Position numbers and translations under genes: made by a program
Shown here: piece by piece, positions 19,350 to 39,074 of the stretch
How positions within the stretch are numbered: position 1 is the first letter of the stretch
How the letters are laid out: every line of letters starts with the position of its first letter
Assembly (NCBI GenBank): GCA_964585535.1
Contig: CAZPDW010000001.1
Location: forward strand, 1-39,074
Direction of reading: 5' to 3'
Length of the DNA stretch: 39,074 nucleotides
Source of the DNA: an uncultured Pirellulales bacterium
GTDB taxonomy: Bacteria > Planctomycetota > Phycisphaerae > Sedimentisphaerales > Anaerobacaceae
Notes under the pieces: model-generated
Seen by the model: the letters and a program-made list of their open reading frames with translations, nothing else
What the model was told of the DNA's origin: nothing
Database searches by the model: none

Positions 19350-19413
19350 CAAATTATGCTACGTTCTTATCCTAAAAACGGTCAGTTTGAGAAGGTTAAT
19401 TACCTTACGGCAT

Positions 19414-21102: not shown

Positions 21103-22461
21103 TTAATAACCGAGTTCGGTTTGAGTTTCGGCGATTGATTCTTCGATTATGTCCATTGCCCTGGCGGCGATGTCGTCGGGCATAACCACCGGCGGACTCA
21201 TACGCAGGATGTGCCCGGCGGGTATCCAGGCAAGTCCTTTCGTAAAGGCCTTTTGATAGACCATTTTGCCGGCCTCGTCAAACGGCTCTTTGGTATTTTT
21301 GTCTTTTACTAACTCGACTCCCATAAGACAGCCCTTACAGCGGGTGTCTCCGACAATAGAGTATTTTTTGGGCCAGTCGGCCATACGTTTGGTGAAGTAT
21401 TCGCCGAGTTCGGCGGCGCGGGCGAGCAGGCCTTCGGTTTCTATTGTCTCGATGCACGCCAGGGCGGCTGCGCAGGCCATCGGGTTGCCGCCGTAGCTTG
21501 TCGAGGCGCTGATTTTATCGACCGCCTCGGCATACTGTTTCTTTACCACCATTGCGGTTACGGGAAAGCCGTTGCCAAGGCCCTTGCCCAGTGTCACGAC
21601 GTCCGGCACGACATTGAAGTGCTCGATACAGAGGTATTTTCCGGTTCTTGCCATACCGGTGAGGACCTCGTCGGCGACTAACAGGATGCCGCGTTCGTCG
21701 CAGAAGGTGCGCAGCTTGCCGAAGAAATCGTCCGGCGGCATAATCGTACCTCCCCAGCCCTGGATGGGTTCGAGTACAAAGGCGGCAATTTGGCCGGTGG
21801 TGCTTTCTTTGATGAACGTATCGTAAAACTCGAGATACCGCTCGGTATCCAGCGAGCCGTCGGCTCTTGTCCACCAGGGGCGGTATGTATCTGGGCGGGG
21901 CACCATATAGAAGCCGGGCGCCCGCGTCGGGCCGTAGAACGGGTTCATTCGAGCAAGCGAGACCGCGTGGCCGGTCTTGCCGTGAAAGTCCATAAAGCAG
22001 GAGATAAACTCGTGTTTTCCCGTGGCCGCCCGGCAGGTGCGAAGGGCGGCCTCGACGGCGGTCGTGCCGGAATCGTATAACTGGACGCCGGCGAAGCCGT
22101 CGGGCAGAACGTCGAGCAGCTTTTCCAACAGTTCGACCTTGACCGGGGTTATGAAGTCGTGGGCGTTCATCAGGCGATTGGCCCATTTAGCGACCGCCTC
22201 GCTGACCTTCGGGTGGCAGTGGCCGAGCGTCGTAACATATATGCCGCTGGAAAAATCGATGTACCTGTTGCCGTCAACGTCGGTGAGCGTACAGCCCTTT
22301 CCCTCGCTGAAGACGACCGGAAAGAGGCGGACCTGGCCCGACAGTCCCTTCATTATTCTGGCTGCCCTTTCGTGCAGCGCGTTGCTTTTGGGGCCGGGCG
22401 GCGTGACTTTGACATCCGGCCACTGATTCAAATCGATGCTGTACGCAACAGGATCATACAT
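21103..22461 (-). CDS. Class III (fold type I) PLP aminotransferase, GabT-like
   Basis: Motifs PPGPKSNAL, DFSSGIYVTTLGHCHP and DEVLTGMARTG, with the PLP Lys in DVVTLGKGLGNGFP. The start is ATG 22461 or ATG 22482. The ORF-track start at 22599 lies upstream of the predicted TSS. Confidence 0.85.
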   Translation of the reverse strand: MYDPVAYSIDLNQWPDVKVTPPGPKSNALHERAARIMKGLSGQVRLFPVVFSEGKGCTLTDVDGNRYIDFSSGIYVTTLGHCHPKVSEAVAKWANRLMNAHDFITPVKVELLEKLLDVLPDGFAGVQLYDSGTTAVEAALRTCRAATGKHEFISCFMDFHGKTGHAVSLARMNPFYGPTRAPGFYMVPRPDTYRPWWTRADGSLDTERYLEFYDTFIKESTTGQIAAFVLEPIQGWGGTIMPPDDFFGKLRTFCDERGILLVADEVLTGMARTGKYLCIEHFNVVPDVVTLGKGLGNGFPVTAMVVKKQYAEAVDKISASTSYGGNPMACAAALACIETIETEGLLARAAELGEYFTKRMADWPKKYSIVGDTRCKGCLMGVELVKDKNTKEPFDEAGKMVYQKAFTKGLAWIPAGHILRMSPPVVMPDDIAARAMDIIEESIAETQTELGY

Positions 22462-22602
22462 TTTTGCACCTTTCACTGCCATGCCATCTGCGGTGTATAT
22501 ATCGTTCACCAAACATGCTCTTATTGGAATCGCTTTACCGGCCCGGGTGTTTGCACTTCTGCAATTTTGGGAATTTTTCCCGGAAAAACGACCTTGCAAT
22601 CA

Positions 22603-22650
22603 ATTATACCGAATGTTAAATTGTGTTCAAGTGTGTTTTTTAATAACATT
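22603..22650 (-). promoter_or_regulatory. 48-bp promoter/operator module, copy 1 (reads toward the aminotransferase gene)
   Basis: The minus strand reads AATGTTATTAAAAAACACACTTGAACACAATTTAACATTCGGTATAAT. It contains TTGAAC-N16-TATAAT. An upstream A-tract and inverted arms AATGTTA / TAACATT bracket the -35. It is 43/48 identical to 32698-32745. Confidence 0.65.
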
Positions 22651-22708
22651 CAATTTTGACCGGCTGCAGGGGCTGCCAAGCGAAGCATATTAAGGCAGGA
22701 GACAATAA

Positions 22709-23491
22709 GTGGCTCAAAAGAGCGGAAAGATAAGTCAGCCGCGACGGCTCGAGGCAATCAGGCGAAAGCTGCTCGAAGACGATGAGGTCTCGATAGAGGT
22801 CCTTGCCGGCGAGTTCGGTGTCAGCGGTATGACCATACGCAGGGACCTGGACGTGTTAGAGTACCAGGGCGACATAATCCGGACGCACGGCGGGGCGGCG
22901 GCGGCAAAACGGCTTACCTTCGAGTTTTCGTTCCGCGACAGGCAGAACAGGAACATCGAGCAAAAGAGGCGGATAGCCCGGCTGGCGGTAAAATACGTCA
23001 GGCCCGGCGAAGTGATTATGCTCGATACGGGCACGACGACGCTGGCAATCGCCCGGCGGCTCAGCGACAAAGAAAAGATAACGGTAATCACGACCTCACT
23101 GGCGATTGTCTCGGAGCTTCAGTTTGCCGCCGGCGTAGAGACCATTCTTTTAGGCGGTTTTCTGAGAAAGGCATCGCCCGATTTGCACGGGCCTCTTACC
23201 GAGCAGAACGTCGAGCTCTTCCGCACCGATGTTGCTTTCATGGGCGCCGACGCCGTTGACAGTATCGGCAATACCTATACCGACGACCTGCGCGTCGCAA
23301 ACCTTGATAAAAAAATGGCTGCAAATGCAAAAAAGGTAATTGTTGTCGCCGACAGCAGCAAATTCGGCAGGGCCGCAATGTGCAGGGTGTTAGGCCCGGG
23401 CGATTACGATATGCTCATAACCGATTCGGCTGTTGACAAGAAAATCGCCGCAACCCTGGCGAAACGTAAAATCAAGATAGAACCGGCATAA
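22709..23491 (+). CDS. DeoR family transcriptional regulator
   Basis: GTG start with AGGAG 7 nt upstream. wHTH VSIEVLAGEFGVSGMTIRRDLDVLE, and a C-terminal DeoR sensor domain (MLDTGTTTLAIA, VITTSL, AFMGADAV). Confidence 0.9.
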   Translation: MAQKSGKISQPRRLEAIRRKLLEDDEVSIEVLAGEFGVSGMTIRRDLDVLEYQGDIIRTHGGAAAAKRLTFEFSFRDRQNRNIEQKRRIARLAVKYVRPGEVIMLDTGTTTLAIARRLSDKEKITVITTSLAIVSELQFAAGVETILLGGFLRKASPDLHGPLTEQNVELFRTDVAFMGADAVDSIGNTYTDDLRVANLDKKMAANAKKVIVVADSSKFGRAAMCRVLGPGDYDMLITDSAVDKKIAATLAKRKIKIEPA

Positions 23492-23511
23492 AACAAGTAA
23501 GGAGATTCACA

Positions 23512-24321
23512 GTGGAAGAACGCAATTTGTTTTTATCGCGATTTTTCAGCACGGGCCCCGCGATTGTGGTGGCCTTCGACCACGGTATGTTCGACGGGCC
23601 TATCGCAGGTGTTGACAAAATCAGGGAAATTCCGGACAAGATTCTGCCGGAAATAGACGGTGTTTTGATGTCGCCTGGTGCGCTGCGGGACATCGGGCCT
23701 GACCTGTGCGGCCATCGCGGTAGTCCGATGCCGATTGTAAGGATAAACTGGTCGAGCATTTACTGCTTCCAGTGGGACTACCATAGTGGTGACACGGTTC
23801 GTATATACACACCGGCTGAGGCACTCAAATCGGGGGCACAGATGGTTCTTATCTCACTGTCACTGCATACGGGCGACCAGCAGCGTGACAGTAAGAATAT
23901 CGAAGTATTTTCAAGACTGTGCAACGAGGCACATGAGTTAGGGCTTCCGGTGATAGGGGAGTATTTTCCCGTTGACGAAAATATAAGCGAAGACGCCCTG
24001 TACGAGGAGATAAAGATTGGCGCCCGGATACTCTACGAGCTTGGGGCCGATGCGATAAAGACCTTTTATACGAAGGACTTCGAGCAGGTTGTGGCGGGCT
24101 GTCCGACGCCGATACTGGCCCTGGGAGGCCAGCGGCGGGGCAGCGACCTCGACGCTCTCAAACTCGCCCGCCGGCAAATCGATGCCGGGGCGGCGGGTAT
24201 CGTCTTCGGCAGGTATGTGATACAATCTGAAAGGCCCATAGAGCTGCAAAAGGCGCTGCTCGACGTGGTCAAAGGGGGCGTCGGCGGCGAGCAGGCGGCG
24301 GCCAAATACGGGCTGGATTGA
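23512..24321 (+). CDS. Class I aldolase of the DhnA/FbaB/LsrF (DeoC/LacD-like) family
   Basis: GTG start preceded by AGGAG. Motifs IVVAFDHGMFDGP and GADAIKTFYT (candidate Schiff-base Lys), with a TIM-barrel-like periodicity. Confidence 0.7.
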   Translation: MEERNLFLSRFFSTGPAIVVAFDHGMFDGPIAGVDKIREIPDKILPEIDGVLMSPGALRDIGPDLCGHRGSPMPIVRINWSSIYCFQWDYHSGDTVRIYTPAEALKSGAQMVLISLSLHTGDQQRDSKNIEVFSRLCNEAHELGLPVIGEYFPVDENISEDALYEEIKIGARILYELGADAIKTFYTKDFEQVVAGCPTPILALGGQRRGSDLDALKLARRQIDAGAAGIVFGRYVIQSERPIELQKALLDVVKGGVGGEQAAAKYGLD

Positions 24322-24388
24322 GCAGCCGGTTATAACGGATGCCCGCCGCGGGCGAATATAAATCGTCAATTGGAGATAGATATTTTAG

Positions 24389-25672
24389 ATGTCGAGATAT
24401 GTGGAATACTACAGGCGAAAGGAATTTGACATTCCGCAGACGATGCAGGCGGTAATCGCAGCGGGGACGGGTTTTGAGAATTTGAGGGTGGCCGAGGTGC
24501 CGGTGCCGCAAATCGGCCCAGACCAGATTCTTGCGAGGGTCGATGCGGCGGGGGTGTGCACGAGTATTCTCAAGCTGATTGACCAGGGTCCGGAGCACAC
24601 GTATATCAACGGCTGGGATATGAAAAAGTGGCCTTTGATTCTGGGCGACGAGGGCTCGGTGACGCTTGTCAAAATCGGGGAGAATCTCAAAGGCAAATAT
24701 CGGCCTGGCGAGCGTTACGCGATTCAGCCGGCCGTCGGCGTCGGGCCGATTGTGCACCGCGAGCGATACAACAATAACGGCGAGGGTATGTACAAGTGCG
24801 GCGTGGGCTATTCGCTGCCGGGCCATCTCGCCCAGTACATTTGCATCCAGGAGGAGGTTCTGGCCGGCGGCTGTCTGCTGCCGCTTGGCGACGATGATTT
24901 GGCGTATTTTGCCGTGTCGATGGCGGAACCGATAAGCTGTGTCTATTCGGCCCAGCAGAGGAACTACCATTTGTTAAAGGACAGTCCATTTGCCGAACGC
25001 AGGGCGAATATGGGTTTTTTGCCGGGCGGGGTCACTGTTGTCGTCGGAGCAGGGGCAATGGGCAGGATGCACACAGAGCTTGCGCTGCGGTTCAAGCCGG
25101 GCGTGCTGATTGTATCGGATTTGCAGCAGGGCCGGCTCGATAAAACCGCAAAGGCCATCAAAGAAAAGTGCCGCTCGTGCGGGACGCAGCTTGTATGTGT
25201 AACGGCTGATAAGCTTAGGCAGAGTGTCAGCGAGCTGTCGGCCGGCAGGGGCGCAGACGATATTATATTAGCGGTGGGGGTCAATGCCGTTCAGCAGCAG
25301 GCGATCGAGCTGCTGGCGCCCGGCGGTGTGGCTAACCTGTTCGGCGGACTGCCGCGCGGACAGCATATCCTCAAGCTCGACGCGATAGCCGTTCACTACC
25401 GCGAAATCAAGGTTGTGGGTTCAAGCGGCGGCGAACCGAGTGATATGGCTGCAACGCTCGAGGCGATTCATACCGGCGACATCGACCCGGGTAATTATGT
25501 CGCCGCGGTCGGCTCACTCGATAATGCCGTCGACGTATTGAAAATGATAAAGGAAACGCAAATCGACGGCAAGGCGATTCTCTATCCCCACATCAAGCAC
25601 ACGCCACTGAAAACCGTTGACTACTGGGACAAACAGCAGGAGATCGATTTCCTCGACCGGCAGCTTGTTTAG
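24389..25672 (+). CDS. Atypical medium-chain dehydrogenase/reductase (zinc-ADH-like fold, long form of 427 aa)
   Basis: GroES-like N-domain (ILARVDAAGVCTSILK, LILGDEGSVTLVKIG) and Rossmann motif VVVGAGAMGRM. The canonical GHE reads GDE and no four-Cys structural-zinc lobe is seen. Confidence 0.7.
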   Translation: MSRYVEYYRRKEFDIPQTMQAVIAAGTGFENLRVAEVPVPQIGPDQILARVDAAGVCTSILKLIDQGPEHTYINGWDMKKWPLILGDEGSVTLVKIGENLKGKYRPGERYAIQPAVGVGPIVHRERYNNNGEGMYKCGVGYSLPGHLAQYICIQEEVLAGGCLLPLGDDDLAYFAVSMAEPISCVYSAQQRNYHLLKDSPFAERRANMGFLPGGVTVVVGAGAMGRMHTELALRFKPGVLIVSDLQQGRLDKTAKAIKEKCRSCGTQLVCVTADKLRQSVSELSAGRGADDIILAVGVNAVQQQAIELLAPGGVANLFGGLPRGQHILKLDAIAVHYREIKVVGSSGGEPSDMAATLEAIHTGDIDPGNYVAAVGSLDNAVDVLKMIKETQIDGKAILYPHIKHTPLKTVDYWDKQQEIDFLDRQLV

Positions 25673-25683
25673 TGATTTTGAGC

Positions 25684-27375
25684 TTACATATTTATGGTTA
25701 TTTCAGGGCCTCCGGTGTGCCTGATTTTGAGGACGCCGCCTTTGTCGAGCGGCTGCCACGTCCAGCCCTCGGCGTCGAGGTCGGCTCGTTCGGTTATCTT
25801 ATTGCCTGCAACAGTTATACTCTTCGGTTTGGCTGTGATGCGCAGGACTTCTGTCGCGGTGTTGTCGTAGGTTTTGTATGCAATCTCATTCAGTTTGTAG
25901 GAAATTTTTTGTACGACCGATGTCGAGCGCAGCAGGTGATTCTCGTCGGCGGGCGCCCATTCGGGAATTGCGGCGACGGCTGCGGTGAAGTGGCGGATAT
26001 AATCGCTGTAGCCGTCGCTGAACCAGATTTGTCTGCGAATAGGTTTTTGGCCGGTGACATATACCATTCCGTTTTCCTGGGTCATGTAGGTAGCCCAGTT
26101 GAGGTATTTCTCCGCCAGGTCTTTGAATTTACTGTCGCCGGTTCTCTCGTACCACATTGCGCATATCGAGCCGAACCTTGCGGTGTGGCTGCCCATGGGG
26201 ACATAGCACCAGAACTGCTCTTTTATGGCCGGGGCATTTTCGGTTTTGAAGGCGTATTTGACCCAATAGATAAGGTAGGGGATAAATTCGTCGATGTCGT
26301 CTCGCAGGTGGGGATTGTTGATGAGGTATCGTGCGGTTTCCAGCGGGGAGATTTGATTGCGATTGACGTTGCCCTGGTCGTTGGGAATATCCTCGAAGTA
26401 ACCCTTCCAGACCATAGACTTGACAGGGCCGAGATTCGAGAACAGCCAATCCCAGACATGCTTTCGGGTGGTCTTGTAGGTCTTGAGTTTTTCGGGGTCG
26501 AGGTCGATTCTGGCAGAAATTCTTATCAGCTCATCGAAGAGGCTTATCGCTCCGATTACGTTCGAGCAGTATTTTTCATAGACCTTGCCGGTCTCGGCAT
26601 GTACCCGGAAGGGCCAGGGTGAGACGTATGCCTTGTCGAACCATGGGGTCTGCTCGGCCCATTCTTTGTCCTTTTTCACGCCTCGAAAGGCGTTGGCGGC
26701 GAGGGCATCGGCGCAATTGATGGCGGCATCGAGGTATTTTTTTTCATCGACTACCTTATAGAACTGAAGGTATGCGAAAGCAAGCTCGCCGACTTTGTCC
26801 GGCTCGATGACATTGAGGCCGTCGGCTCTTCCACCTATACCCCAGCGTGTTCCGCCGACATATTCGGTTGCTTTGGGGTCGCTGCTGGCGTAGGGGACTT
26901 TGGGCCAGAGCCAGCCCTTGGGTGTGGAGCCGTGTTCGATTTGATGGTCGAGGCACTGGGCGAGCATGCCGATGTAGGAGTCGTCGCCGGAATAGACCCT
27001 GTAATCGAGGACGAGGCCCTGGACGAGGCCTGCGTAGAAGCAGGCGGGGTTGTGCGATTCATCGGAGCCGGCGTCGCCTTTGAGGAACGTTTCTTCGCTG
27101 ATATGCTCGAAGTTGAATATCCAGTTGTGTACCATGTAGTAGGGCAGGCCTGTCGTCGATTCTTTGGGGCAGTTTTTGATGAAGCCGGCGGCGAGGTCGC
27201 AGACTTTTGTGTAGGCGGCGCCGGGGACATCCGGCTTGTACCAGGAAAGCAGCCCAGCCGTGTCGTCGTACACTGCCTTGTGGGTACATAATGTTTCGCG
27301 CGTGGTTTCTGAAAACACCAGGGCGTTAGCAAACAGGAATACAAATATCACATAATACAGGTTCTTTCGCATCAT
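25684..27375 (-). CDS. Secreted protein, paralog A of an unassigned family (putative alpha/alpha-toroid glycan-active enzyme plus C-terminal beta-domain)
   Basis: Signal peptide MMRKNLYYVIFVFLFANALVFS. It shares long identical blocks with 30953-32629: HNPAC.YAGLVQGLVLD.RV..GDDSYI, VPYASSDP, IEPDK.GEL..AYL.FY.V..EKKYL.AAINCADALA, SPWPFRV.A.TG, YFEDIPND, WFSDGY.DYIRHF and STSVVQKI. The fold assignment is inferred from helical repeat patterns only. Confidence 0.75.
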   Translation of the reverse strand: MMRKNLYYVIFVFLFANALVFSETTRETLCTHKAVYDDTAGLLSWYKPDVPGAAYTKVCDLAAGFIKNCPKESTTGLPYYMVHNWIFNFEHISEETFLKGDAGSDESHNPACFYAGLVQGLVLDYRVYSGDDSYIGMLAQCLDHQIEHGSTPKGWLWPKVPYASSDPKATEYVGGTRWGIGGRADGLNVIEPDKVGELAFAYLQFYKVVDEKKYLDAAINCADALAANAFRGVKKDKEWAEQTPWFDKAYVSPWPFRVHAETGKVYEKYCSNVIGAISLFDELIRISARIDLDPEKLKTYKTTRKHVWDWLFSNLGPVKSMVWKGYFEDIPNDQGNVNRNQISPLETARYLINNPHLRDDIDEFIPYLIYWVKYAFKTENAPAIKEQFWCYVPMGSHTARFGSICAMWYERTGDSKFKDLAEKYLNWATYMTQENGMVYVTGQKPIRRQIWFSDGYSDYIRHFTAAVAAIPEWAPADENHLLRSTSVVQKISYKLNEIAYKTYDNTATEVLRITAKPKSITVAGNKITERADLDAEGWTWQPLDKGGVLKIRHTGGPEITINM

Positions 27376-27400
27376 AAGAGTTCCCTATTATCTGTTATTG

Positions 27401-29278
27401 TTAAATGCCCTTGCCTGTTACGGTCCGAACGACTGTTCCGCCTTCAAAAGGTGGAACCTTGATTAAGGCCGAGGTGATATTATCGTCTTGCCTTGTAAAA
27501 AGGTAAAAGCCGGTCGGCACATCCGCGCTGCCGACGAGCTCGGCTTCAACCGTTCCCGAAGACGCCTCGTAAGTGCAGGACTTCATCTTTGAAGTGCGAT
27601 GGGCACGGACAATCCTGAGGGCGTCGTCCATAGTGAGATAAATCGGGTTGTAATCTGCAATGCCTTCGCTGACAAGTTTCAGCTCTCTGTCCCAGTTCTT
27701 CGGCTCTATTCTGAAGAGGTAGTCCGTTTCGTGAGTGAAAAGCACCGCCAACGCCCTGGCATTGAGAGCCCTGGTAAGGATTCTGATGCCGCGGTCAGCC
27801 GTTCCATCGTCATCGTTGTCGGGCTTCCATTCGTAGCCGGTTATATCAGCAATCACAGTTGAGCAGTTAAAGAACTTGCGCCCCGCCAGCTCCACAAAGT
27901 CGGCGTTATATCTCGGATGCGAGACCCTGACTTTTTTGGGCTTTCCATAAACCGGTTCTTCATACAGGCGGAATGGGCCTGACTTGATTCCGGGTCCCGG
28001 CTGACCCCAGGCCCAGTCGAGGGGAGCTGCAGCGATGAACTCAATACGCCACTTATCTGCGATGTGCGGTATGCAATTGCTGCCCATTTCGCCCCAGTGC
28101 GCAATGAGATACTTCGACATCGGCAGCGGCTGATTGTCGGCGCACCATTTGTCAATGGCCTTCAGATTTTCCGATGCGACCTCATCGGGCCAGGACTCTT
28201 TGTCGTTATGATTGTAGAAGATGAACTCGTCGTAGAACTTCGAGCGGTACGGCAGCGCTTTGGGATAGTAGTAGTCGGGTATGAAATGGTTCGGGACCAT
28301 TTGATACTTGTAGTCGGCCTCGAAGTTGGCGGCGTCGGATTCCGGTCTGGGCGGTCTTCCGAAGGCGTGGGGCGACCAGGCTGCCTGTCCGTCCAGGATA
28401 TATCCCCGCAGCTCTTCGACCGCCTGAGGATTCAGGTTGTAAATGAACAGGGCGAGCCACGGCTTGAAACCATATTTGTTGGCGGTTTTAATCCAGAAAA
28501 ACGGAGTCTGGTTCCAGCGTCCGCCCGAGCCGACAACATCATCGATACGCATAGTCACTATCGGCGGCAGAAGCCGCATTGCGAATGGTTTTCTTGCCGC
28601 CCAGACGATTGACCGCCACAGCAAATCATCCAGCCCACCCATAGGCCCAAGCACCGAGCGGTACATCCAGTCCTGGCTGGTGAACTGCGCTACCCTGCCT
28701 TTTCCCGCTGAGGCAGCAACGAGCAGCGGGTAATTGCTGCCGCTCACCAGGACATCGGCATTGACAGCGGAAAATCGAGCAAGCTGCATTACGCCAAATA
28801 GTTCGAGTATCTCAACCGGTTTGTGAAGGGCGGTTATAAAATGGCCTGCCGGCGAGAACTTTAACTCGCCGACATCCACAGGGCGGGACTGTCGGCCCGA
28901 CTGATTCTTCAAAAAGGCGCCCGGAACATCGGGGTCAAAACTGACCAGGCCGGTACCTGCCTTTACACCTGCCGTCAACAGCTCATCGAGTTTGTCCTTC
29001 AGCCGGCTGTCACCGGCGGCTAAGCGGCTGTGGGAGACTATTACCAGGGCATAATAAACGACGGATGCGGGAAGATTTTGCCGGCCCAAATCCACCACGC
29101 TATATGGCACGCCAAAATGGTCGAGATAGGGCAAGAGCTTTTCCTTTGCCTTTGAAACTTGCGGGCTGTTAGTATTCAATAAGACGAGCACATCCATCGA
29201 GCCGGCCTTTGCAGAGGCGTTTGCAGCACCAATTAGTATCATTGATACTAACAGCAGTATAAAAGTTATTTTTTTCAC
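27401..29278 (-). CDS. Secreted 625-aa protein of unknown function (possible flavodoxin/GATase1-like N-domain plus polysaccharide-deacetylase-like middle domain)
   Basis: GTG start preceded by GGAGAAGGA. Signal peptide MKKITFILLLVSMILIGAANASA. The N-terminal VLVLLNTN...LPYLDHFGVPYSVVDL...YALVIVSH resembles sugar-enzyme accessory domains. IVTMRIDDVVG resembles the xRxDD start of NodB/DUF2334-like deacetylase folds. This is a weak call made by eye. Confidence 0.6.
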   Translation of the reverse strand: MKKITFILLLVSMILIGAANASAKAGSMDVLVLLNTNSPQVSKAKEKLLPYLDHFGVPYSVVDLGRQNLPASVVYYALVIVSHSRLAAGDSRLKDKLDELLTAGVKAGTGLVSFDPDVPGAFLKNQSGRQSRPVDVGELKFSPAGHFITALHKPVEILELFGVMQLARFSAVNADVLVSGSNYPLLVAASAGKGRVAQFTSQDWMYRSVLGPMGGLDDLLWRSIVWAARKPFAMRLLPPIVTMRIDDVVGSGGRWNQTPFFWIKTANKYGFKPWLALFIYNLNPQAVEELRGYILDGQAAWSPHAFGRPPRPESDAANFEADYKYQMVPNHFIPDYYYPKALPYRSKFYDEFIFYNHNDKESWPDEVASENLKAIDKWCADNQPLPMSKYLIAHWGEMGSNCIPHIADKWRIEFIAAAPLDWAWGQPGPGIKSGPFRLYEEPVYGKPKKVRVSHPRYNADFVELAGRKFFNCSTVIADITGYEWKPDNDDDGTADRGIRILTRALNARALAVLFTHETDYLFRIEPKNWDRELKLVSEGIADYNPIYLTMDDALRIVRAHRTSKMKSCTYEASSGTVEAELVGSADVPTGFYLFTRQDDNITSALIKVPPFEGGTVVRTVTGKGI

Positions 29279-29304
29279 TTTCCTTCTCCCGTAACCGGCT
29301 TTTT

Positions 29305-30930: not shown

Positions 30931-30952
30931 GACCGGCTCCATTTATGAATTG

Positions 30953-32629: not shown

Positions 32630-32697
32630 CTTAGTGCCTCCATAAAGTATTGTCACTGTCCCGTTGTGAGTGTTTTTACACGTCGGGGCCTGAAAAA

Positions 32698-32745
32698 AAT
32701 GTTATTAAAAAACACACTTGAACATAATCTAACATCCTTTATAAT
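32698..32745 (+). promoter_or_regulatory. 48-bp promoter/operator module, copy 2 (reads toward the isomerase-kinase-transporter operon)
   Basis: AATGTTATTAAAAAACACACTTGAACATAATCTAACATCCTTTATAAT, with TTGAAC at 32718-32723, a 16-nt spacer and TATAAT at 32740-32745. It is 43/48 identical to the reverse complement of 22603-22650. Confidence 0.65.
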
Positions 32746-32809
32746 GCCCTGCAACTATGTTTTCCACAAAAAAACCGGAATCGAAAAGAACCGTTAAGGG
32801 AGACGCACA

Positions 32810-34171
32810 ATGGCTGACCGAAAGAAAATCGTCGCGGGAATTGTCGGACTCGGATACGAGGGATATTCGATGGATTTCGTTGATAAGATAACGGCCCGCG
32901 TCCGCAGGGACCTGCAGAAGAGCGACGCCTTTACATTCAGGCGGATACCGAAGATTCAAAACTACGAGCAGGGCCAGGCCGCAATCGAGGCATTTTCGCC
33001 GAAGGGCTGTGATTTGCTCATCGCCGTAGTGGCGAGCTGGCTGGACGGGCGGGGCGCGATGCCCTTCTTGATAGCCAACAAGCAGTTGCCCGTTTTGCTT
33101 TACGCGACGGGCGGCAGGACACAAAAGCCCGGCTACCTGCTGTCGCCAGCGGCCGGCGCCGGCGCGCCGGGGATACTCGAACCGATGAGGGCGGCGGGAA
33201 TCGAATTCAAGTTTTTGCACGAGCCGCCGGATACCAATACAAAGGTCGATGAGATACTGCGGTTTGCCAGGGCGGCAAAGGCGGTCAACAACCTTAAGAG
33301 CAAACGGCTCGGCAGTATGGGCTTTGGCGATATGGGGCTGTACACGACAAACTTCGACAACACGCTTATCAGGAACGTATATGGCGTCCAGACCGAGTTC
33401 TTCGATATGCTCGAGGTGGAAAATGCCGCGGCAGCGGTTGGTAAAGCACAGGCAAACAAAGTCATATCGCAATTGAAAAAAGACTGGAAGTTTTTAGGGC
33501 AGTCCCCGAAAGACGAGACGCTCGAGAGGGTCGCCTCGCTGACGTTAGCCGTCCGCAAAATCATAAGGGAAAAGAAGCTCTCGGCCATATCGCTGAAGTG
33601 TGTCGAGGGTATGATGTCGCATATGGCCTGTGCGCCTTGTATGATAGGCACGCTCGTGGGCGACGACTGCTTTTACGTCTGCGAGAACGATGTGCCGGGT
33701 ATGTTGGGTCACGTTATTTTGAATTCGGTCAGCGGCGAGGTTGCAACGTTTGTTGAGTCGTATGAGCTCTGGGACGACCGGATTCTGTTCGGCGTGTGCG
33801 GTTTTGTGCCGCCTTCAATGATAAAGGGGCCCAAACTGAGCAAGCTGTTCAAGACCGAGCCGTGGGAAGGGCTGATGAACTGCTCGCAGATGAAGACGGG
33901 CAGGGTAACAATGCTCAGGCCTTACTTTACCGGCGGTGCGGCCAGGATTCATCTGGTGACGGCCAAGGCGGTGCCGGCGAGAAAGTGGCTCGAGATAGGA
34001 TTTGAAGAGCCGGGAATGCACCCGAGCGTTGAGATTGTACTCGACGGAACGTTGAGGCATTTCGTTGAGCACGTGCCCGCACAGCACTTTTCGTTGGTCT
34101 ATGGCGACTGGGCGAAAGAAGTTGAGTACCTTTGCAGACTGCTCGGCGTCGAATTAGTTTACGAAGGGTAA
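32810..34171 (+). CDS. Aldose-ketose isomerase of the L-arabinose/L-fucose isomerase superfamily
   Basis: AAGGGAG RBS. The architecture parallels AraA/FucI. N-terminal flavodoxin-like IVGLGYEGYS...LLIAVVASW. Central CENDVPG and FVESYELWD match the positions of AraA GEGDWK and FMEDY. C-terminal AQHFSLVYGDW...LGVEL matches AraA HHTVFSH...HDIEI. Confidence 0.6.
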   Translation: MADRKKIVAGIVGLGYEGYSMDFVDKITARVRRDLQKSDAFTFRRIPKIQNYEQGQAAIEAFSPKGCDLLIAVVASWLDGRGAMPFLIANKQLPVLLYATGGRTQKPGYLLSPAAGAGAPGILEPMRAAGIEFKFLHEPPDTNTKVDEILRFARAAKAVNNLKSKRLGSMGFGDMGLYTTNFDNTLIRNVYGVQTEFFDMLEVENAAAAVGKAQANKVISQLKKDWKFLGQSPKDETLERVASLTLAVRKIIREKKLSAISLKCVEGMMSHMACAPCMIGTLVGDDCFYVCENDVPGMLGHVILNSVSGEVATFVESYELWDDRILFGVCGFVPPSMIKGPKLSKLFKTEPWEGLMNCSQMKTGRVTMLRPYFTGGAARIHLVTAKAVPARKWLEIGFEEPGMHPSVEIVLDGTLRHFVEHVPAQHFSLVYGDWAKEVEYLCRLLGVELVYEG

Positions 34172-34195
34172 TAAAGAACCGGCTGGGAAACAGAA

Positions 34196-35698
34196 TTGGA
34201 CTTTTTTCTATCGCTGGACATCGGGACTACATCGGTAAAAGCTGCGCTTGTCGGCGCGGACGGCGAGATACCGGCCATTGCAGTGAGGGAATACACGCTT
34301 TATACACCGGCTGAGAATATCGTTGAGTTAGAGCCGGAAATTTACTGGCGCCGCTGCGTCGAAGGCATCAAAGAGGTGCTTGATAAAAGCGGGGTCGCCG
34401 CGGGGCAAATCAAATCGGTCGGCGTATGCAGCCAGGGCGAAACGCTCATCTGCCTCGACGAGAATGGCGGGGCATTGCGAAAAGCGATTGTCTGGATGGA
34501 CAACCGCTCGACGAAAGAGGCCGGGGAAATAAAAGCCGCCCTGACAACAGAGAACAATACCGGCCAATTGGATGTCGCCGCCACCTGGCCCGTTACAAAA
34601 ATCCTCTGGCTGAAGAAAAACGAGCCCGAAACTTATCGCAGGGTACACAAATTTGTGCTTGTCGAGGATTATATTCTGTACCGCCTGACGGGGCTGTTCA
34701 AGGGAGAGTATTCGCTTTATACGTCGTCGTTTATGTTAGACATCATCAACAAAAGGTGGTGGACCGAGATACTCGATTATGTCGGTGTGGCGGCCGAGCG
34801 GCTTGTTGAGCTTTGCGAGTCGGGCGAGGTAATCGGCGAGGTTCAGCCGGCTGTCTGCAAAGAGACGGGGCTGGCCGAGGGTATGAAGGTTGTTACAGGG
34901 GCGATGGACCAGACGGCGGCGATGATTGGAGCGGGCAACATCAAAAGCGGCATTGTTACCGAGACCACCGGGGCGGCCTTAGCCGTATGCGGTACAACCG
35001 GCGCGTTTGCGGCCAAAGAGGCGAAACGAACTATGGCGGTCCAATACCACGCCATTGTCGACAAATACCTTATCATCGGCTGGTGTCCAACGGGCGGGAT
35101 GGCGTTTAAGTGGCTGCGTGACACCTTGTTCGGCGCAGAAAAAGGCCGGGCGGCAAAAGACGGAGCCGATGTCTACGACGCAATGACCGCACTGGCGGCT
35201 GAAATCCCGCCGGGCAGCCGGGGGCTGATTTTCCTGCCGTACCTGGCAGGTCCCGGGACGGGCAATATCAGCGCCGATGCAAGGGGGGTATTCTACGGGC
35301 TTGAGCTGCACCACAATCGCGGCGATTTTGCCAGGGCGGTAATGGAATCGGTTGCCTTTGTGCTGAAACAATACGTTGTCGAGATGGGCCGGCTGGGCCT
35401 TGAGTGCAGTGAAATCCGTTCGTTAGGGGGCGGCTCGAAGAGCCGGCTGTGGAACCGGATAAAGGCGGACGTCTTGGGAAAACCTGTAACGACGATGAGG
35501 TGTGGCGAGGCCGCTGCGCTCGGTGTCGCCATTTTGCAGGCCGCGGCAATGGGGACGTTCGATACCATCGAGCAGGCCGTTAAAAGTATGGTGCGGACCG
35601 AATCGGTCGTTGAGCCGGTTGAAGAAAATGTCAGGGTGTACGGCGGGATTTTCGAGAAGTTTTGCGAAATAAACAATAAATGTTTCGGTGTGGTGTGA
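34196..35698 (+). CDS. FGGY family carbohydrate kinase (xylulokinase/fuculokinase-like)
   Basis: TTG start. Motifs FLSLDIGTTSVKAALV, VGVCSQGETL, AIVWMDNRS and GGGSKSRLWNRIKADVLGKPV. Confidence 0.88.
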   Translation: MDFFLSLDIGTTSVKAALVGADGEIPAIAVREYTLYTPAENIVELEPEIYWRRCVEGIKEVLDKSGVAAGQIKSVGVCSQGETLICLDENGGALRKAIVWMDNRSTKEAGEIKAALTTENNTGQLDVAATWPVTKILWLKKNEPETYRRVHKFVLVEDYILYRLTGLFKGEYSLYTSSFMLDIINKRWWTEILDYVGVAAERLVELCESGEVIGEVQPAVCKETGLAEGMKVVTGAMDQTAAMIGAGNIKSGIVTETTGAALAVCGTTGAFAAKEAKRTMAVQYHAIVDKYLIIGWCPTGGMAFKWLRDTLFGAEKGRAAKDGADVYDAMTALAAEIPPGSRGLIFLPYLAGPGTGNISADARGVFYGLELHHNRGDFARAVMESVAFVLKQYVVEMGRLGLECSEIRSLGGGSKSRLWNRIKADVLGKPVTTMRCGEAAALGVAILQAAAMGTFDTIEQAVKSMVRTESVVEPVEENVRVYGGIFEKFCEINNKCFGVV

Positions 35699-35708
35699 GG
35701 ACTGGTAT

Positions 35709-37301
35709 ATGGAAGGAATCGGAACACTCGATATCTTTGTATTTATCAGCTACTTTGTCGTAGTTGTATTTATCGGTTTTTTCGTAGGCAGGAAGAAGAA
35801 GGAATCGGCCCGCGATTACTTTGTAACATCGAGCCGGCTGCCGTGGTACATCATCGGCTTTGCGATGGTGGCCTCTTCGATAAGCACCGAGCAGTTTATC
35901 GGCTCGGCGGGCTTTACGTACAAGTGGGGTATTGCGGTATTCAACTGGGAATGGTGCAACTGGCCTGCGATGCTCATATTAATCTGGATATTTCTGCCTG
36001 TATATCTAAACAAGAAGATAGTTACGATGCCCGGCTACCTCGAGAAGAGGTTCGGGGCCGGGCCCCGCAACGTTTATGCGGCCATCAGCATACTCGCGGC
36101 GGTGCTCATAATCCTTCCCGGGGTACTTTACACCGGCGGGCTGCTTTTGAACCAGATATTTCCCGCAATTTCGATAGGTAAGGGAATCTGGCTGATGGCG
36201 ATAGTTAGCGGGGCGTTTACGATTTACGGCGGGATGATTTCGGTGGCGTGGGCGCAGTTGTTCCAGGCGATTCTGCTGTTAGCGTCGGGGATTCTTTTGT
36301 TCTTTTTAGCCATAGTAAAGGTGCCGGGCGGGCTAAACGCCATTCTGTGGGCGCCGGATGAGGCGAGAAACCACCTCATACTGCCATACAATCACCCGGA
36401 GCTTCCCTGGACGGCCATTATAGTTTTAGTCGTTTCGACAAATATATGGTACTTCTGCACAAACCAGACCATAATCCAGAGCTGTCTCGGTGCGAGGTCG
36501 CGCCGGGACGGCATAATGGGGATAATACTGCTGGGTTTTCTGATGATTTTGACCGGTCTTTCGGTGGAGTTTCCCGGCTTAGTGGCTTATGCGCTCAATC
36601 CTCACCTGGAAAAGGCCGACACCGCCTATCCGTTTGTGGTCAAGCAGCTTGTCAGTACGGGGCTGAAAGGACTGGTGCTGGCCGGTATGTGCGGAGCGGT
36701 TATGAGCACGGTCGAGGCGCTGATGCATTCCTCGTCGGCCATTTTCACGATGGATTTGTACACGAGATTGTTCAGGAAAACGCCCGACAAAAAGCTCATC
36801 ACCATAGGCCGATGGGCCAGCGGCAGCATACTTTTAGTGGGAGCGCTGTGGGCGCCGATGGTCGCAAAATTCCCCGACATATTCAGTTTTTTCCAGCGCT
36901 GCTGGTTTTTCATCGCCGCTCCGGTGGCGGCGGTTTTTATCCTTGCGATACTGTCCAAACGCACCACACGAACCGCCGCTCTCTGGGGTCTGCTGCTGGT
37001 CTTTCCGCTGTTCGTATTGCCGTACATCCTGCTGGCCGGCAAGAAGCATTTCGGCTGGCAGGTGAACGATTTTAATTTAGCCGGCGTTATCTTTGCGTTC
37101 TCTATGGTCTTCATCGCTGTCCTCAGCGCATTCACTAAGCCGGCTAAAGCCGAGCAGATTGAGGGGCTCGTCTGGCGCCCGGCAATGATGAAACTGCCCG
37201 AGGCCGAGCTGGCCGACGGCTATCCGTGGTACAAGAACCTCTGGCTGTGGTGCGGAATCTGGGTGGCCGTAATGGTCGCGATATATGTCAGGTTCTGGTA
37301 G
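35709..37301 (+). CDS. Sodium:solute symporter family (SSS/SGLT-like) transporter
   Basis: The start is set at ATG 35709 (GAGGA 7 nt upstream). About 13-14 TM helices, with SSS-type motifs RDYFVTSSRLPWYIIGFAMVASSISTEQFIG and TMPGYLEKRFG. Confidence 0.85.
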   Translation: MEGIGTLDIFVFISYFVVVVFIGFFVGRKKKESARDYFVTSSRLPWYIIGFAMVASSISTEQFIGSAGFTYKWGIAVFNWEWCNWPAMLILIWIFLPVYLNKKIVTMPGYLEKRFGAGPRNVYAAISILAAVLIILPGVLYTGGLLLNQIFPAISIGKGIWLMAIVSGAFTIYGGMISVAWAQLFQAILLLASGILLFFLAIVKVPGGLNAILWAPDEARNHLILPYNHPELPWTAIIVLVVSTNIWYFCTNQTIIQSCLGARSRRDGIMGIILLGFLMILTGLSVEFPGLVAYALNPHLEKADTAYPFVVKQLVSTGLKGLVLAGMCGAVMSTVEALMHSSSAIFTMDLYTRLFRKTPDKKLITIGRWASGSILLVGALWAPMVAKFPDIFSFFQRCWFFIAAPVAAVFILAILSKRTTRTAALWGLLLVFPLFVLPYILLAGKKHFGWQVNDFNLAGVIFAFSMVFIAVLSAFTKPAKAEQIEGLVWRPAMMKLPEAELADGYPWYKNLWLWCGIWVAVMVAIYVRFW

Positions 37302-37322
37302 CGATAAAGCTATCTCGGCGTA

Positions 37323-39026
37323 TTACTTTTTTGACTTTGGTCCTATCGAGCCGCCATAGATGCGAGCGAGTGCTTCGAGGGATTTCTTGGGTTTGTGGTC
37401 GGCGGTGACAACGCCGTAAGGGCCAAAGACGGCATAATCGATGAACTCACGGCGGTGATAGTAATCGGCCCAGCACCAGAGGACACCCCCGGAGATGTCG
37501 GGGACGTTGTTGATGGCTTCGGCGACCTTTTCGATGTAGCGTGCCTGGAAGTCTTCGGAATAGTGCACGTCACCATGAATACCCTTTATGCCGCGTGTTC
37601 CGAATTCGGTGATGATGATGGGCTTGCTGAAATGTCGCCGCTGGCGTCTGATGTGTTTTTCGGAGGGCTCCCGCACATTGGAATCAAGCTGAGAGTAGTG
37701 ATAGGCAACGGGCTCGGTAAACAGGCCGTAGTATATGTTGAAGCACACTATGTCGGCCTGTTCGAAAGCCAGATGTCCTCTTGCATCGCCGCTGGCAACG
37801 AAAGTCACCGGTCGGGTCTTATCGAGCTCTTTCGTTTTCTTAATAAGCCGGCGCATCACCGTGATACCGATATCATTGTCGGTGGCACATTCGTTGGCCA
37901 TGCTCCAGATGATGATGCAGGGGTGGTTTTTGTCCCTGCGAATCATTTTCTCGAGTGCAGTGGCGGCTGGTTCGAGAATGTCGAGGTTCTGGCGTGCGCC
38001 TTTGCCCCACCAGTCCTGTCCCCACCAGTTCAGCGGCAACTCCTCCATCATCAAAAAGCCCATCTCGTCAAAGAGTGAGAGCGTCTCGGGGGAATTCGGA
38101 TAATGTCCCCTGATAAGATTGACCCCCGTTTTCTTTATCATTCTCAGGTCTTCGGTCACGAGTTCTCTTGGCGGATTAGGGCCGAGCCTGCCGTAGATGT
38201 CATATCGGTTTACCCCTTTGACCTTTAGCTCCCTACTGTTGAGGAACAGCCTTTTGCCCTTTGCTTCGATAGTCCTTACACCGAAACGGTCCGACAAGAC
38301 ATCGATTGTCCGTTGGTCACGAGCGAGTGAAGCGGTGAGCGTGTAGAGAACCGGCGTATCCGGCGACCAGAGTTTCGCTTTTGGCATTGAGAGGTCAAGT
38401 TCAGCGGCTGTGACGGCATTTGGCCTGCAATTTACTTTTTTGCCTGCCGTGCACTCAACGTGTGCAACTTCAACGGCCAGAACTGTCTCAACTGTATCAG
38501 CGGTGCGATTTGTGACTTCGACCTTGCAGGTTACCTGGGCAGCGTTGTTGTGTGGAACCGCGATTATTGTGAGGTCCGAAATATACACGCTCGCTGTGCC
38601 GACCAGATGCACGGGCTGGAGTATTCCGCCGTATTGTACCCACTCTATATTCGAAGCGGCAGGCAGCCATTCGATTCTCGGTTTGTTGTCGACACGCAGT
38701 ACCAGATGATTCGGTATGCCGGGTTTTAGATGTTCGGTAACGTCAAATTCGAAAGGCAGGTAGCCGCCGACATTCTCACCGATAAACCGGCCATTCAACC
38801 ATACTTTTGTGTAGTAGTTCACCCGCCAGAAGACAAGCCTCTGGAACATGCCGGACTTCACAAGCTCAGGTGAGATGGCTGTGCAATACCAGCCGATACC
38901 CTCGTAGCCCCACAGGGCTGTTTCGTAACAGTCCCAGGCGCCTGGGACTTTGACTTTTGTCCAATCGCTTCGCTTAAAATCGTCTGAGAACCATTGTTCT
39001 TTTTCACCGATATTAAATACGTCCAT
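37323..39026 (-). CDS. Glycoside hydrolase family 2 (beta-glucuronidase/beta-galactosidase-like), cytoplasmic
   Basis: Sugar-binding N-domain (WYCT..., VWLNGRFIGENVGGYLPFEFDVT). TIM barrel NLIRGHYPNS, acid/base region NHPCIIIWSMANE and nucleophile region PIIITEFG. No signal peptide. Confidence 0.85.
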   Translation of the reverse strand: MDVFNIGEKEQWFSDDFKRSDWTKVKVPGAWDCYETALWGYEGIGWYCTAISPELVKSGMFQRLVFWRVNYYTKVWLNGRFIGENVGGYLPFEFDVTEHLKPGIPNHLVLRVDNKPRIEWLPAASNIEWVQYGGILQPVHLVGTASVYISDLTIIAVPHNNAAQVTCKVEVTNRTADTVETVLAVEVAHVECTAGKKVNCRPNAVTAAELDLSMPKAKLWSPDTPVLYTLTASLARDQRTIDVLSDRFGVRTIEAKGKRLFLNSRELKVKGVNRYDIYGRLGPNPPRELVTEDLRMIKKTGVNLIRGHYPNSPETLSLFDEMGFLMMEELPLNWWGQDWWGKGARQNLDILEPAATALEKMIRRDKNHPCIIIWSMANECATDNDIGITVMRRLIKKTKELDKTRPVTFVASGDARGHLAFEQADIVCFNIYYGLFTEPVAYHYSQLDSNVREPSEKHIRRQRRHFSKPIIITEFGTRGIKGIHGDVHYSEDFQARYIEKVAEAINNVPDISGGVLWCWADYYHRREFIDYAVFGPYGVVTADHKPKKSLEALARIYGGSIGPKSKK

Positions 39027-39074
39027 TTGGAACTGCCAATTATCAGAAAGCGTATGGACAGTCCGTTTTGAGAG

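Follow-up and report, generated by a model that had tools for sequence, protein, structure and literature searches.

A conserved planctomycete locus in which secreted Agd3/PelA-like and (alpha/alpha)6-barrel proteins accompany an isomerase-kinase-aldolase module with an embedded aminotransferase

Gene content, control DNA and gene order in relatives give us high confidence that the contig of an uncultured Pirellulales bacterium analyzed here (CAZPDW010000001.1, assembly GCA_964585535.1, positions 1 to 39,074; all 39,074 nucleotides are referred to as the window) carries one conserved catabolic unit of undescribed specificity, which begins near 19.4 kb, runs to the end of the contig and is one in which a secreted and a cytoplasmic layer of proteins share common control DNA. 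The locus is a glycan utilization system feeding an isomerase-kinase-aldolase pathway, and it has three unusual parts: (i) a catabolic Agd3/PelA-like putative deacetylase, here called DAC625, (ii) a large unnamed family of (alpha/alpha)6-barrel proteins, here called Tor, and (iii) an embedded aminotransferase-reductase pair. An earlier note, made from the letters of the sequence, had reported twelve of the genes and had proposed an uncharacterized catabolic system; the listing of open reading frames (ORFs) together with Pfam and NCBIfam scans confirmed all twelve at their positions and in their families. The proposal itself also stands: no enzyme of the locus reaches the curated NCBIfam equivalog cut-off for a characterized function (scores and cut-offs are given below in bits), and hidden Markov model scans and Foldseek comparisons did not resolve the proteins into well-characterized families that make up a described pathway. 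Literature searches on this enzyme set, on CE18 enzymes in catabolic loci, on transaminase routes for galactosamine and on FGGY-based sulfoglycolysis brought up no pathway that matches, and look-ups of clusters gave neither names nor accessions.

The locus is laid out as two divergons, i.e. divergent gene pairs. In the first, the genes for a class-III (GabT/ArgD-like) aminotransferase (21103..22482, ORF to 22599, minus strand; Pfam Aminotran_3, 3e-97) and for an oxidoreductase with a twin-arginine translocation (TAT) signal (19414..20955, minus strand; Pfam GFO_IDH_MocA and TAT_signal) lie opposite those for an AgaR-like DeoR-family repressor (22709..23491, plus strand; HTH_DeoR and DeoRC), a class I aldolase and a medium-chain dehydrogenase/reductase (MDR). 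In the second, TorC-TorB-DAC625-TorA lie opposite the genes for an isomerase, a kinase and a sodium:solute symporter (SSS). The exact 25-mer TGTTCAAGTGTGTTTTTTAATAACA is present in both divergent intergenic regions (22624-22648 and 32700-32724) and nowhere else in the window, and none is expected by chance (0 matches in 100 shuffles). It sits within a 77-nt inverted repeat pair (I1) common to the two regions, which forms a shared promoter/operator block: the promoter of copy 1 (22574..22650) is on the minus strand and directed towards the aminotransferase gene, and that of copy 2 (32698..32774) is on the plus strand and directed towards the isomerase gene. A pattern scan found the promoter-like TTGAAC-16-TATAAT twice, once per block, with identical -35 (TTGAAC) and -10 (TATAAT) boxes, and the dyad ATGTTA-N25-TAACAT flanks the -35 box. 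Its sequence does not vary among five promoter copies found in three genomes, namely the window, L005 and L086, the last of which is more distant (L numbers designate loci from the synteny searches), and copy 2 has kept its place in L005 and L086. Because the block is identical in both divergent regions and kept in relatives, the sequence argues strongly for common regulation of the units of the locus, and the encoded DeoR repressor, for which AgaR is the best NCBIfam model (200 vs 260), probably controls all of them by means of this putative shared operator.

Gene order in relatives was approached from two independent starting points, DAC625 and the isomerase. A DAC625 scan with one genome per species gave 79 loci, and orthologs, defined by at least 40% identity, are found in Planctomycetota, Bacteroidota and Chloroflexota. 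Within 10 kb of these orthologs lie the genes for the isomerase (17 loci), the aldolase (16), the kinase (15), Tor (14), DeoR (14) and the aminotransferase (10); many DAC625 contigs end early and all of these counts are lower bounds. Starting from the isomerase, 35 independent metagenome loci of at least 10 kb have the kinase within 10 kb in 27 cases, the aldolase in 17, DeoR in 16, the aminotransferase in 13 and DAC625 in 12. The cytoplasmic module, comprising the aminotransferase, a dehydrogenase, the FucI/SftI-like isomerase, the FGGY kinase, the DhnA-type aldolase and DeoR, recurs in the three phyla and is sometimes one compact operon: in L094 and L100 the genes for DeoR, MDR, aminotransferase, aldolase, kinase, isomerase and a small SIS isomerase are all on the same strand, in an unbroken run in L094 and with two other genes between kinase and isomerase in L100. 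Given that it recurs from both starting points and is compact in L094 and L100, this module is a coherent unit; the surrounding secreted genes vary. On another contig from a metagenome-assembled genome labeled uncultured Pirellulales the 625-aa protein is 93% identical and the gene order is kept to the contig limit. The earlier note had offered a lack of synteny in relatives as grounds for giving up its proposal; the locus is syntenic across three phyla.

The secreted surroundings follow the lineage. The Bacteroidota versions carry SusC/D pairs, extracytoplasmic function (ECF) sigma/anti-sigma genes and glycoside hydrolase (GH) genes, with SusC/D in the syntenic loci L002, L003 and L007; in L038 the apparent SusC/D pair consists of a SusC-cluster ORF and, after it, a 499-aa ORF without annotation. 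In a Dysgonomonas-type variant three TAT oxidoreductases take the place of Tor and the aminotransferase, and a KpsF-like SIS isomerase is present. Pfam and NCBIfam scans of the whole window detected no sulfatase, SusC/D or TonB receptor among its genes, as the earlier note had reported, and the planctomycete locus further differs from a Bacteroidota polysaccharide utilization locus (PUL) in that its central secreted enzymes are without Pfam families. The claim of the earlier note that the substrate is not predictable from known PUL grammar stands for the window; the Bacteroidota versions with SusC/D follow ordinary PUL grammar.

The aminotransferase is integral to the cytoplasmic module and has a swappable dehydrogenase partner. 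In Bacteroidota and Chloroflexota, a cytoplasmic GFO/IDH/MocA oxidoreductase (c7) directly follows the aminotransferase. The window, L005, L090, L094 and L100 lack c7 and have the MDR instead, and in L094 and L100 its gene is the direct neighbor of the aminotransferase gene. Among 26 aminotransferase-bearing loci, 15 have only c7, 5 only the MDR, 6 neither and none both, the partner usually being the gene adjacent to the aminotransferase, and both dehydrogenases always track the aminotransferase and not the aldolase. The MDR (24389..25672, plus strand, 427 aa; ADH_N and ADH_zinc_N) is thus not a core gene of the module: it is a lineage-specific substitute. Its best NCBIfam model is IolM (84 vs 450), and the earlier statement that it lacks the canonical zinc ligands is correct for the GHE motif, in which His is replaced by Asp, and incorrect for the catalytic Cys, which is kept. 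In Ulvibacterium marinum, DAC625 adjoins a different pair, a DegT-family aminotransferase and an RmlD-like reductase, together with a GalK-like kinase and an SSS transporter. Since three non-homologous aminotransferase-reductase pairs occupy the same neighborhood, we infer that they serve one function, most simply the conversion of an amine via a ketone to an alcohol. The U. marinum CCMM003 locus, from a cultured flavobacterium (L024 1-17186, NZ_RBCJ01000003.1), also holds genes for an amidohydrolase, a gamma-glutamyltransferase, a 1004-aa GH2 protein and two GH28 proteins.

Two boundaries in the first divergon were reconsidered. The aminotransferase gene is listed from a TTG, but the -10 element of the promoter-like site ends at 22603, four bases before that codon, and an ATG at 22482 yields a protein of 459 aa, to be compared with 455-463 aa in homologs; because the promoter-like site abuts the TTG and the homologs have these lengths, translation most likely starts at the ATG. 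All NCBIfam matches of the aminotransferase are under their cut-offs. The TAT oxidoreductase gene lies 147 nt downstream of it on the same strand, in an order that is kept in L005, and for these reasons is probably the last gene of the aminotransferase transcription unit, placing the start of the locus at 19414. The best NCBIfam model for this protein is the BT_2158 family glycoside 3-dehydrogenase (389 vs 750).

DAC625 (27401..29278, minus strand) is a secreted 625-aa protein with a signal peptide. It has no NCBIfam match, no PDB sequence match by single-sequence or profile search and no Pfam match above threshold; the weak sub-threshold matches were to DUF2194 (7 of 30 members) and GATase1_like. 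In its AlphaFold2 model (pLDDT 89), residues ~30-230, 240-560 and 563-620 form an alpha/beta/alpha CBM87-like domain, a distorted (beta/alpha)7 esterase domain and a C-terminal beta-sandwich, which is the architecture found in carbohydrate esterase family CE18. The top Foldseek match is Agd3 (6nwz, E 4.9e-11), over the whole length, PelA (9cgy) is also matched, and the small GATase1-like proteins 2gk3 and 3soz come next, aligning to the N-terminal domain. The model agrees with the published three-domain architecture of Agd3 (PMC7229062) and with that of the 610-aa PelADA of Bacillus cereus, in which an HxxD likewise follows the acid His (PMC13254593).

Across 75 homologs of DAC625, down to 30% identity, D246, D247, H304, H394, R503 and H516 are invariant. 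D246-D247 follow the first barrel strand, as expected of the Asp-Asp of the CE18 motif CM1, which supplies the catalytic base and a metal ligand, and H516 lies within FTHETD, an HxxD like H488/D491 of PelADA; by their conservation R503 and H516 are candidates for the Arg of CM3 and the catalytic His of CM4. To judge by these residues, the invariant set would be the catalytic inventory of CE4 and CE18 enzymes. The metal-binding HxxxH of CM2 is not conserved in the 75 homologs: unlike in CE4/CE18, the two invariant histidines H304 and H394 are 90 residues apart, and H394 is followed by E397 in an HxxE. Because of this spacing and the missing HxxxH we call DAC625 Agd3/PelA-like and do not assign it to CE18, and membership at the level of sequence was rejected for want of a PDB match even by profile. 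Agd3 (CE18), PelA (CE21) and PelADA share with DAC625 the three-domain layout, the Asp-Asp, an extracytoplasmic location and, to judge by conservation, the Arg and the acid His with its HxxD; they differ in having no detectable sequence similarity to it, in the placement of the candidate metal-binding histidines and in being encoded in biosynthetic operons, where they mature a biofilm polymer, whereas DAC625 is encoded in catabolic loci. Distant homologs of DAC625 (~30-35% identity, median ORF ~800 aa; L048-L083) are found in Anaerolineae, Verrucomicrobiota and Bacillota in unrelated neighborhoods, those of Longilinea and Anaerolinea within a conserved five-gene block.

TorA (25684..27375), TorB (29305..30942) and TorC (30953..32629, ORF to 32656), all encoded on the minus strand, are paralogs with 35-56% identity, TorA and TorC being 56% and TorB, the most divergent of the three, and TorC 35% identical. 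TorC probably starts at the ATG at 32629 rather than at the ORF start, which gives 558 aa and a protein identical to P0001. With DAC625, they are the four secreted proteins of the earlier note, and their signal peptides are visible in the sequences. None of the four has a Pfam or NCBIfam match at normal thresholds, TorA matching C5-epim_C weakly. The earlier view that the extracellular enzymes belong to no nameable family accordingly holds for Pfam and NCBIfam families and no longer for the folds, which are Agd3/PelA-like for DAC625 and (alpha/alpha)6 barrels for Tor. The TorC family has at least 2,486 homologs, all labeled hypothetical, in phyla that include KSB1, Calditrichota, Bacteroidota and Latescibacterota.

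The AlphaFold2 model of TorC (pLDDT 84) consists of an (alpha/alpha)6 barrel and a C-terminal beta-sandwich. Foldseek returned generic (alpha/alpha)6 matches only (AGE epimerases, GH76, GH116, GH127 and GH146), with query TM-scores of at most 0.48; the top match is 2rdy, which we take to be a GH95-like protein. Single-sequence and profile searches against PDB chains gave nothing meaningful. Of 25 family members, 10 weakly match the GH127 catalytic domain PF07944 (best 5.8e-5); an assignment to GH127/GH146, the beta-L-arabinofuranosidase clan, was rejected, PF07944 nowhere exceeding its gathering score and none of the three window paralogs matching it. The GH127/GH146 clan has a Cys nucleophile and a Cys3-Glu zinc site; in Tor, C397 and C412 are nearly invariant, and many acidic residues are invariant. 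Based on the fold, the secretion signals, the invariant acidic residues and the genomic context, the Tor proteins are most likely glycosidases. Tor also occurs in a context quite unlike that of the window: in candidate division KSB1 (L085 1-9536) a homolog adjoins five GFO/IDH/MocA paralogs, two FGE-sulfatase-domain proteins and a ThuA/AP_endonuc_2 fusion.

The enzymes that would act on the released sugar score below the cut-offs of their best functional models. The isomerase (32810..34171, plus strand; Pfam Fucose_iso_N1, weak) is a short aldose-ketose isomerase of the FucI/AraA superfamily that scores best with SftI (76.8 vs 700; FucI 34 vs 850), and among PDB sequences it matches isomerases of D-arabinose and L-fucose. 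The kinase (34196..35698, plus strand; FGGY_N and FGGY_C) is an FGGY sugar kinase, as its solved relatives also indicate, and is XylB/GntK-like (XylB 330 vs 380, GntK 282 vs 649, LsrK 222 vs 528). Its gene overlaps by 11 nt with that of the SSS transporter (35688..37301, plus strand; Pfam SSF, 2.8e-59), which scores above the cut-off of the NCBIfam sss superfamily model. The aldolase (23512..24321, plus strand; Pfam DeoC, i.e. PF01791, the DeoC/LacD family, 2.6e-16) belongs to the DhnA/LsrF/ADH-synthase branch: its best models are PRK07226 (142 vs 241), LsrF (132 vs 297) and ADH synthase (119 vs 299), that of the archaeal class I fructose-bisphosphate aldolase scores 102 vs 430, and its top PDB sequence matches are LsrF and MJ0400, which bears out the class I DhnA/LsrF-type enzyme of the earlier note.

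The last gene encodes a GH2 protein of the beta-glucuronidase/beta-galacturonidase type (37323..39074, minus strand; three GH2 Pfam domains; beta-glucuronidase (GUS) model 243 vs 544). Because the nearest solved structures are GUS enzymes and the galacturonidase AqGalA, this sequence suggests a beta-linked uronic acid in the substrate. GH2 or GH28 genes adjoin DAC625 elsewhere, and in L092 a GH2 homolog directly follows the isomerase gene. The reading frame is open to the contig end and has an ATG at 39026; the residues LSDNWQF upstream of this ATG resemble LDGLWAF, which we take to be the N-terminal motif of E. coli GUS. For these two reasons the position of the N-terminus is uncertain, the 5' end of the gene lying at or just past the contig end. 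The homologs are without signal peptides, in line with the cytoplasmic GH2 of the earlier note, within the limit set by a gene whose 5' end is at the contig edge.

Combining the folds, the conserved neighborhoods and the shared control DNA, we tentatively favor, at somewhat less than an even chance, a model in which a secreted deacetylase and Tor act on an acetylated amino-sugar glycan and the product is processed by transamination, reduction, isomerization, phosphorylation and aldol cleavage. Outside the cytoplasm DAC625 would deacetylate the glycan, in all likelihood at the N-acetyl groups of an amino sugar, TorA-C would cut the linkages exposed by deacetylation, and the TAT-exported glycoside-3-dehydrogenase-like oxidoreductase may take part. 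The products would enter via the SSS transporter and the cytoplasmic GH2 would remove the beta-linked uronic acid. Subsequently, in what we infer to be the order of the steps, (i) the class-III aminotransferase would convert the free amine to a ketone, (ii) the MDR, or in other lineages the GFO/IDH/MocA enzyme, would reduce the ketone, (iii) the FucI/SftI-like isomerase would produce a ketose, (iv) the FGGY kinase would phosphorylate it and (v) the DhnA-type class I aldolase would release a triose phosphate and a small aldehyde. Candidate substrates are an N-acetylated hexosamine or 6-deoxy-hexosamine in uronic-acid-containing microbial or algal polysaccharides, with polymers of N-acetylgalactosamine (GalNAc) as a sub-case.

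That the locus encodes a transamination route for an amino sugar is possible, and we advance it with considerable reserve. Neither aminotransferases nor transaminases are mentioned in a review of amino-sugar metabolism from 2025, in which a search turned up the AgaS-type deaminase/isomerase as the sole deamination step (PMC12118421). The most far-reaching version is rather unlikely as a whole, namely an undescribed amino-sugar route, distributed widely among the Planctomycetota, Bacteroidota and Chloroflexota of sediments and soils, in which a secreted, catabolic Agd3/PelA-like de-N-acetylase and a new GH family, Tor, release a free amino sugar, and a class-III transaminase and a keto-reductase, in place of the known deaminases, remove its amine ahead of isomerase, kinase and aldolase.

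Several observations weigh against the amino-sugar model. The closest solved relatives of the aminotransferase are GABA aminotransferases and amino-acid racemases and not sugar-acting enzymes, and the histidine spacing of DAC625 departs from that of CE4/CE18 enzymes. The usual cargo of SSS transporters is monosaccharides, and this sits badly with a glycosidase inside the cell. Elsewhere, orthologs of DAC625 have sulfatases, a GH29 fucosidase, GH2 genes or an IlvD/EDD dehydratase as neighbors, with neither an aminotransferase nor the module nearby; DAC625 is consequently a portable accessory that is not tied to the pathway, and it may be an O-deacetylase. Conversely, the Tor-isomerase-kinase-SSS module occurs without DAC625 in L084 (Chryseolinea) and L086, and the 10-kb flanks of L086 are devoid of DAC625, aminotransferase and aldolase, so that the core sugar may be neutral. 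Finally, the neighbors of some isomerase modules are not glycosidases but an oxidase of the DAO family, an M24 peptidase and ABC transporters. Since DAC625 and the Tor/isomerase modules occur apart, the module has DAO, M24 and ABC contexts and the relatives of the aminotransferase act on amino acids, we do not name the substrate.

A pathway for a neutral 6-deoxyhexose or pentose of the fucose/rhamnose type accounts for several of these observations and, although unlikely, is the strongest alternative. In such a pathway Tor would release the sugar, the isomerase, kinase and aldolase would convert it to dihydroxyacetone phosphate and lactaldehyde or glycolaldehyde, the dehydrogenase would handle the aldehyde, the aminotransferase would serve a side branch and DAC625 would remove O-acetyl groups. 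In addition to the gene set of L086 and the GH29 and sulfatase neighbors of DAC625, it is favored by an isomerase from the FucI/AraA superfamily that is closest to SftI, an isomerase of 6-deoxy-6-sulfo-glucose, by an aldolase closest to ADH synthase, the substrate of which is a 6-deoxy-ketohexose 1-phosphate, and by the presumed GH95-like nature of the top Foldseek match of Tor. The aminotransferase argues against it: in most lineages it lies with the adjacent dehydrogenase inside the operon, directly after DeoR, the alternative dehydrogenases follow it and not the aldolase, and a third, non-homologous aminotransferase-reductase pair lies beside DAC625 in Ulvibacterium. The earlier note had likened the isomerase-kinase-aldolase logic to the fucose, rhamnose and sulfo-EMP (EMP for Embden-Meyerhof-Parnas) pathways, and the likeness is genuine, although no described pathway is matched. 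As in the E. coli L-fucose (fucPIK, fucAO, FucR) and L-rhamnose regulons, an aldose-ketose isomerase is followed by an FGGY kinase, an aldolase and an aldehyde dehydrogenase/reductase, FucR is of the DeoR family and FucI is in the superfamily of the locus isomerase. In contrast to FucA and RhaD, which are class II enzymes, the aldolase of the locus is of class I, on which ground identity with these regulons was rejected; moreover, the FucI, FucK and RhaB models remain far under their cut-offs, the kinase is nearer to XylB/GntK than to FucK, and the aminotransferase and dehydrogenase are integral to the module.

Within the amino-sugar model, a GalNAc-rich polymer, either an alpha-1,4-GalNAc polymer like Pel and galactosaminogalactan or an unsulfated chondroitin-like polymer of glucuronic acid and GalNAc, would be a quite improbable special case, in which galactosamine would be converted via galactose or talose to tagatose phosphate and cleaved by the class I aldolase. 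The only characterized structural relatives of DAC625, Agd3, PelA and PelADA, act on alpha-1,4-GalNAc polymers, AgaR, the best model of the regulator, is the GalNAc/galactosamine repressor, the GH2 is glucuronidase-like, and in Ulvibacterium a GalK-like kinase follows the aminotransferase-reductase pair. Moreover, the Pfam family of the aldolase, PF01791, is named partly after LacD, a tagatose-bisphosphate aldolase (PMC12118421). However, AgaR stays under its cut-off, LacD is less close to the aldolase than LsrF and ADH synthase are, the locus lacks the second kinase that tagatose 6-phosphate would need, and a likeness in fold does not fix the substrate. The aga/gam cluster (AgaR, AgaA, AgaS, KbaY/Z) similarly has a DeoR-type repressor and combines deacetylation, amine removal and aldolase cleavage. 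There, the phosphorylated monosaccharide is deacetylated by AgaA and deaminated by the SIS-domain protein AgaS, and the aldolase is of class II (PMC12118421), whereas the locus described here has a secreted, polymer-type deacetylase, a transaminase dependent on pyridoxal phosphate (PLP) with a reductase as the candidate for amine removal, and no phosphotransferase system. As the window contains neither an AgaS-type SIS deaminase nor a class II tagatose-bisphosphate aldolase, identity with aga/gam was rejected.

Alternatively, the module may degrade a sugar-amine conjugate or an amino-polyol of an Amadori- or opine-like kind, the secreted enzymes in the window being a lineage-specific add-on. 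We consider this improbable. It would explain why the L094 operon is flanked by genes for a DAO-family FAD oxidase, a short-chain dehydrogenase/reductase, a PTE-family hydrolase, a second aminotransferase and an ABC transporter, and why L100 has an M24 creatinase/prolidase-like gene within the module; yet in most lineages the module lies among signal-peptide CAZyme-like genes and SusC/D, and in the window the Tor operon and the isomerase operon share their control region. The M24-like gene of L100 and a second, AraA-like isomerase gene (Arabinose_Iso_C) are the two genes between the kinase and the FucI-like isomerase (7358-8827).

A variant of sulfoglycolysis is very improbable. The order of enzymes in the locus mirrors that of the sulfo-EMP pathway, and a sulfo-EMP-like route from non-orthologous parts would use an SftI-like isomerase, the FGGY kinase, the class I aldolase and a sulfolactaldehyde reductase, consistent with the isomerase's best NCBIfam model being sulfoquinovose isomerase SftI and with the shared isomerase, kinase, class I aldolase and reductase logic of sulfo-EMP and sulfo-SFT, SftI being the nearest named relative of the isomerase. 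The scores are very low, 77 of 700 for SftI itself, the aminotransferase and deacetylase would be without a role, and sulfo-EMP identity was rejected, a GH31-type sulfoquinovosidase and a sulfonate exporter being absent from the window. The autoinducer-2 operon lsr (LsrK, LsrG, LsrF) resembles the locus in pairing an FGGY kinase with a DhnA-family LsrF-like enzyme, LsrF being the top solved match of the aldolase and LsrK a strong match of the kinase, and differs in that the locus lacks LsrG, LsrR and LsrACDB, the LsrF and LsrK models are under their cut-offs, and secreted CAZyme-like genes and SusC/D accompany the kinase-aldolase pair in relatives; the absence of LsrG and LsrR led us to reject this identity. 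Just as improbable as sulfoglycolysis is a set of unrelated neighboring operons with no common function, given that the control block is shared and the synteny is repeated across phyla from two independent starts, and chance adjacency is at odds with the synteny and the shared operator.

If the amino-sugar model is correct, the locus would contribute a candidate for a new family of glycoside hydrolases, thousands of whose members come from the environment, a catabolic use of a deacetylase fold so far known only from the maturation of biofilm polymers (Agd3, PelA) and a transaminase-based removal of nitrogen from an amino sugar. The lineages that bear the locus dominate sediment, soil and digester communities, and the turnover of acetylated microbial and algal exopolysaccharides could be touched. 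Related loci have cultured carriers, Chryseolinea sp. H1M3-3 and Ulvibacterium marinum CCMM003.

Further genes recur around the secreted proteins. A gene for a gamma-glutamyltransferase (Ntn-hydrolase) is repeatedly found beside DAC625 and Tor genes (L017, L023/L024, L026, L029, L034 and L097), a hint that the substrate may have a second amide bond, e.g. an N-acyl or amino-acid substituent. In Bacteroidota a lipoprotein of ~243 aa (cluster c12; L022 13592-14320 and five other loci), not present in the window, follows DAC625 or Tor; it has no Pfam or NCBIfam match and by eye resembles the DUF1080/LamG-like "3-keto-disaccharide hydrolase" type. In L086, where Tor is present in four clustered copies along with isomerase, kinase and SSS, the adjoining positions 19249-21722 hold GFO/IDH/MocA, AP_endonuc_2 (xylose-isomerase-like TIM) and transketolase/E1-like genes that follow an AraC regulator, and no aldolase lies within range; a transketolase-type cleavage may stand in for the aldolase there, or the set may be a separate operon.

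In the window, the antisense ORFs 25672-26622 (plus strand) and 32729-33472 (minus strand) are treated as spurious because they have no family matches and overlap real genes. The remaining genes have housekeeping functions, among them a Kdo transferase, a PglF-like dehydratase and the alternative route of heme biosynthesis. The siroheme-dependent (alternative, Ahb-type) heme biosynthesis cluster (4332-11217) holds a CobA/HemD fusion, a radical-SAM/SPASM protein (AhbD-like), glutamyl-tRNA reductase, porphobilinogen deaminase, a second class-III aminotransferase, probably HemL, and an NirDL/AhbAB-like regulator-fold protein. Between 17000 and 20000 the G+C content drops to 0.47-0.49, compared with ~0.54-0.58 elsewhere, and this dip, which has a gene for a class-IV aminotransferase on one side and that of the TAT oxidoreductase on the other, marks the left edge of the catabolic locus.

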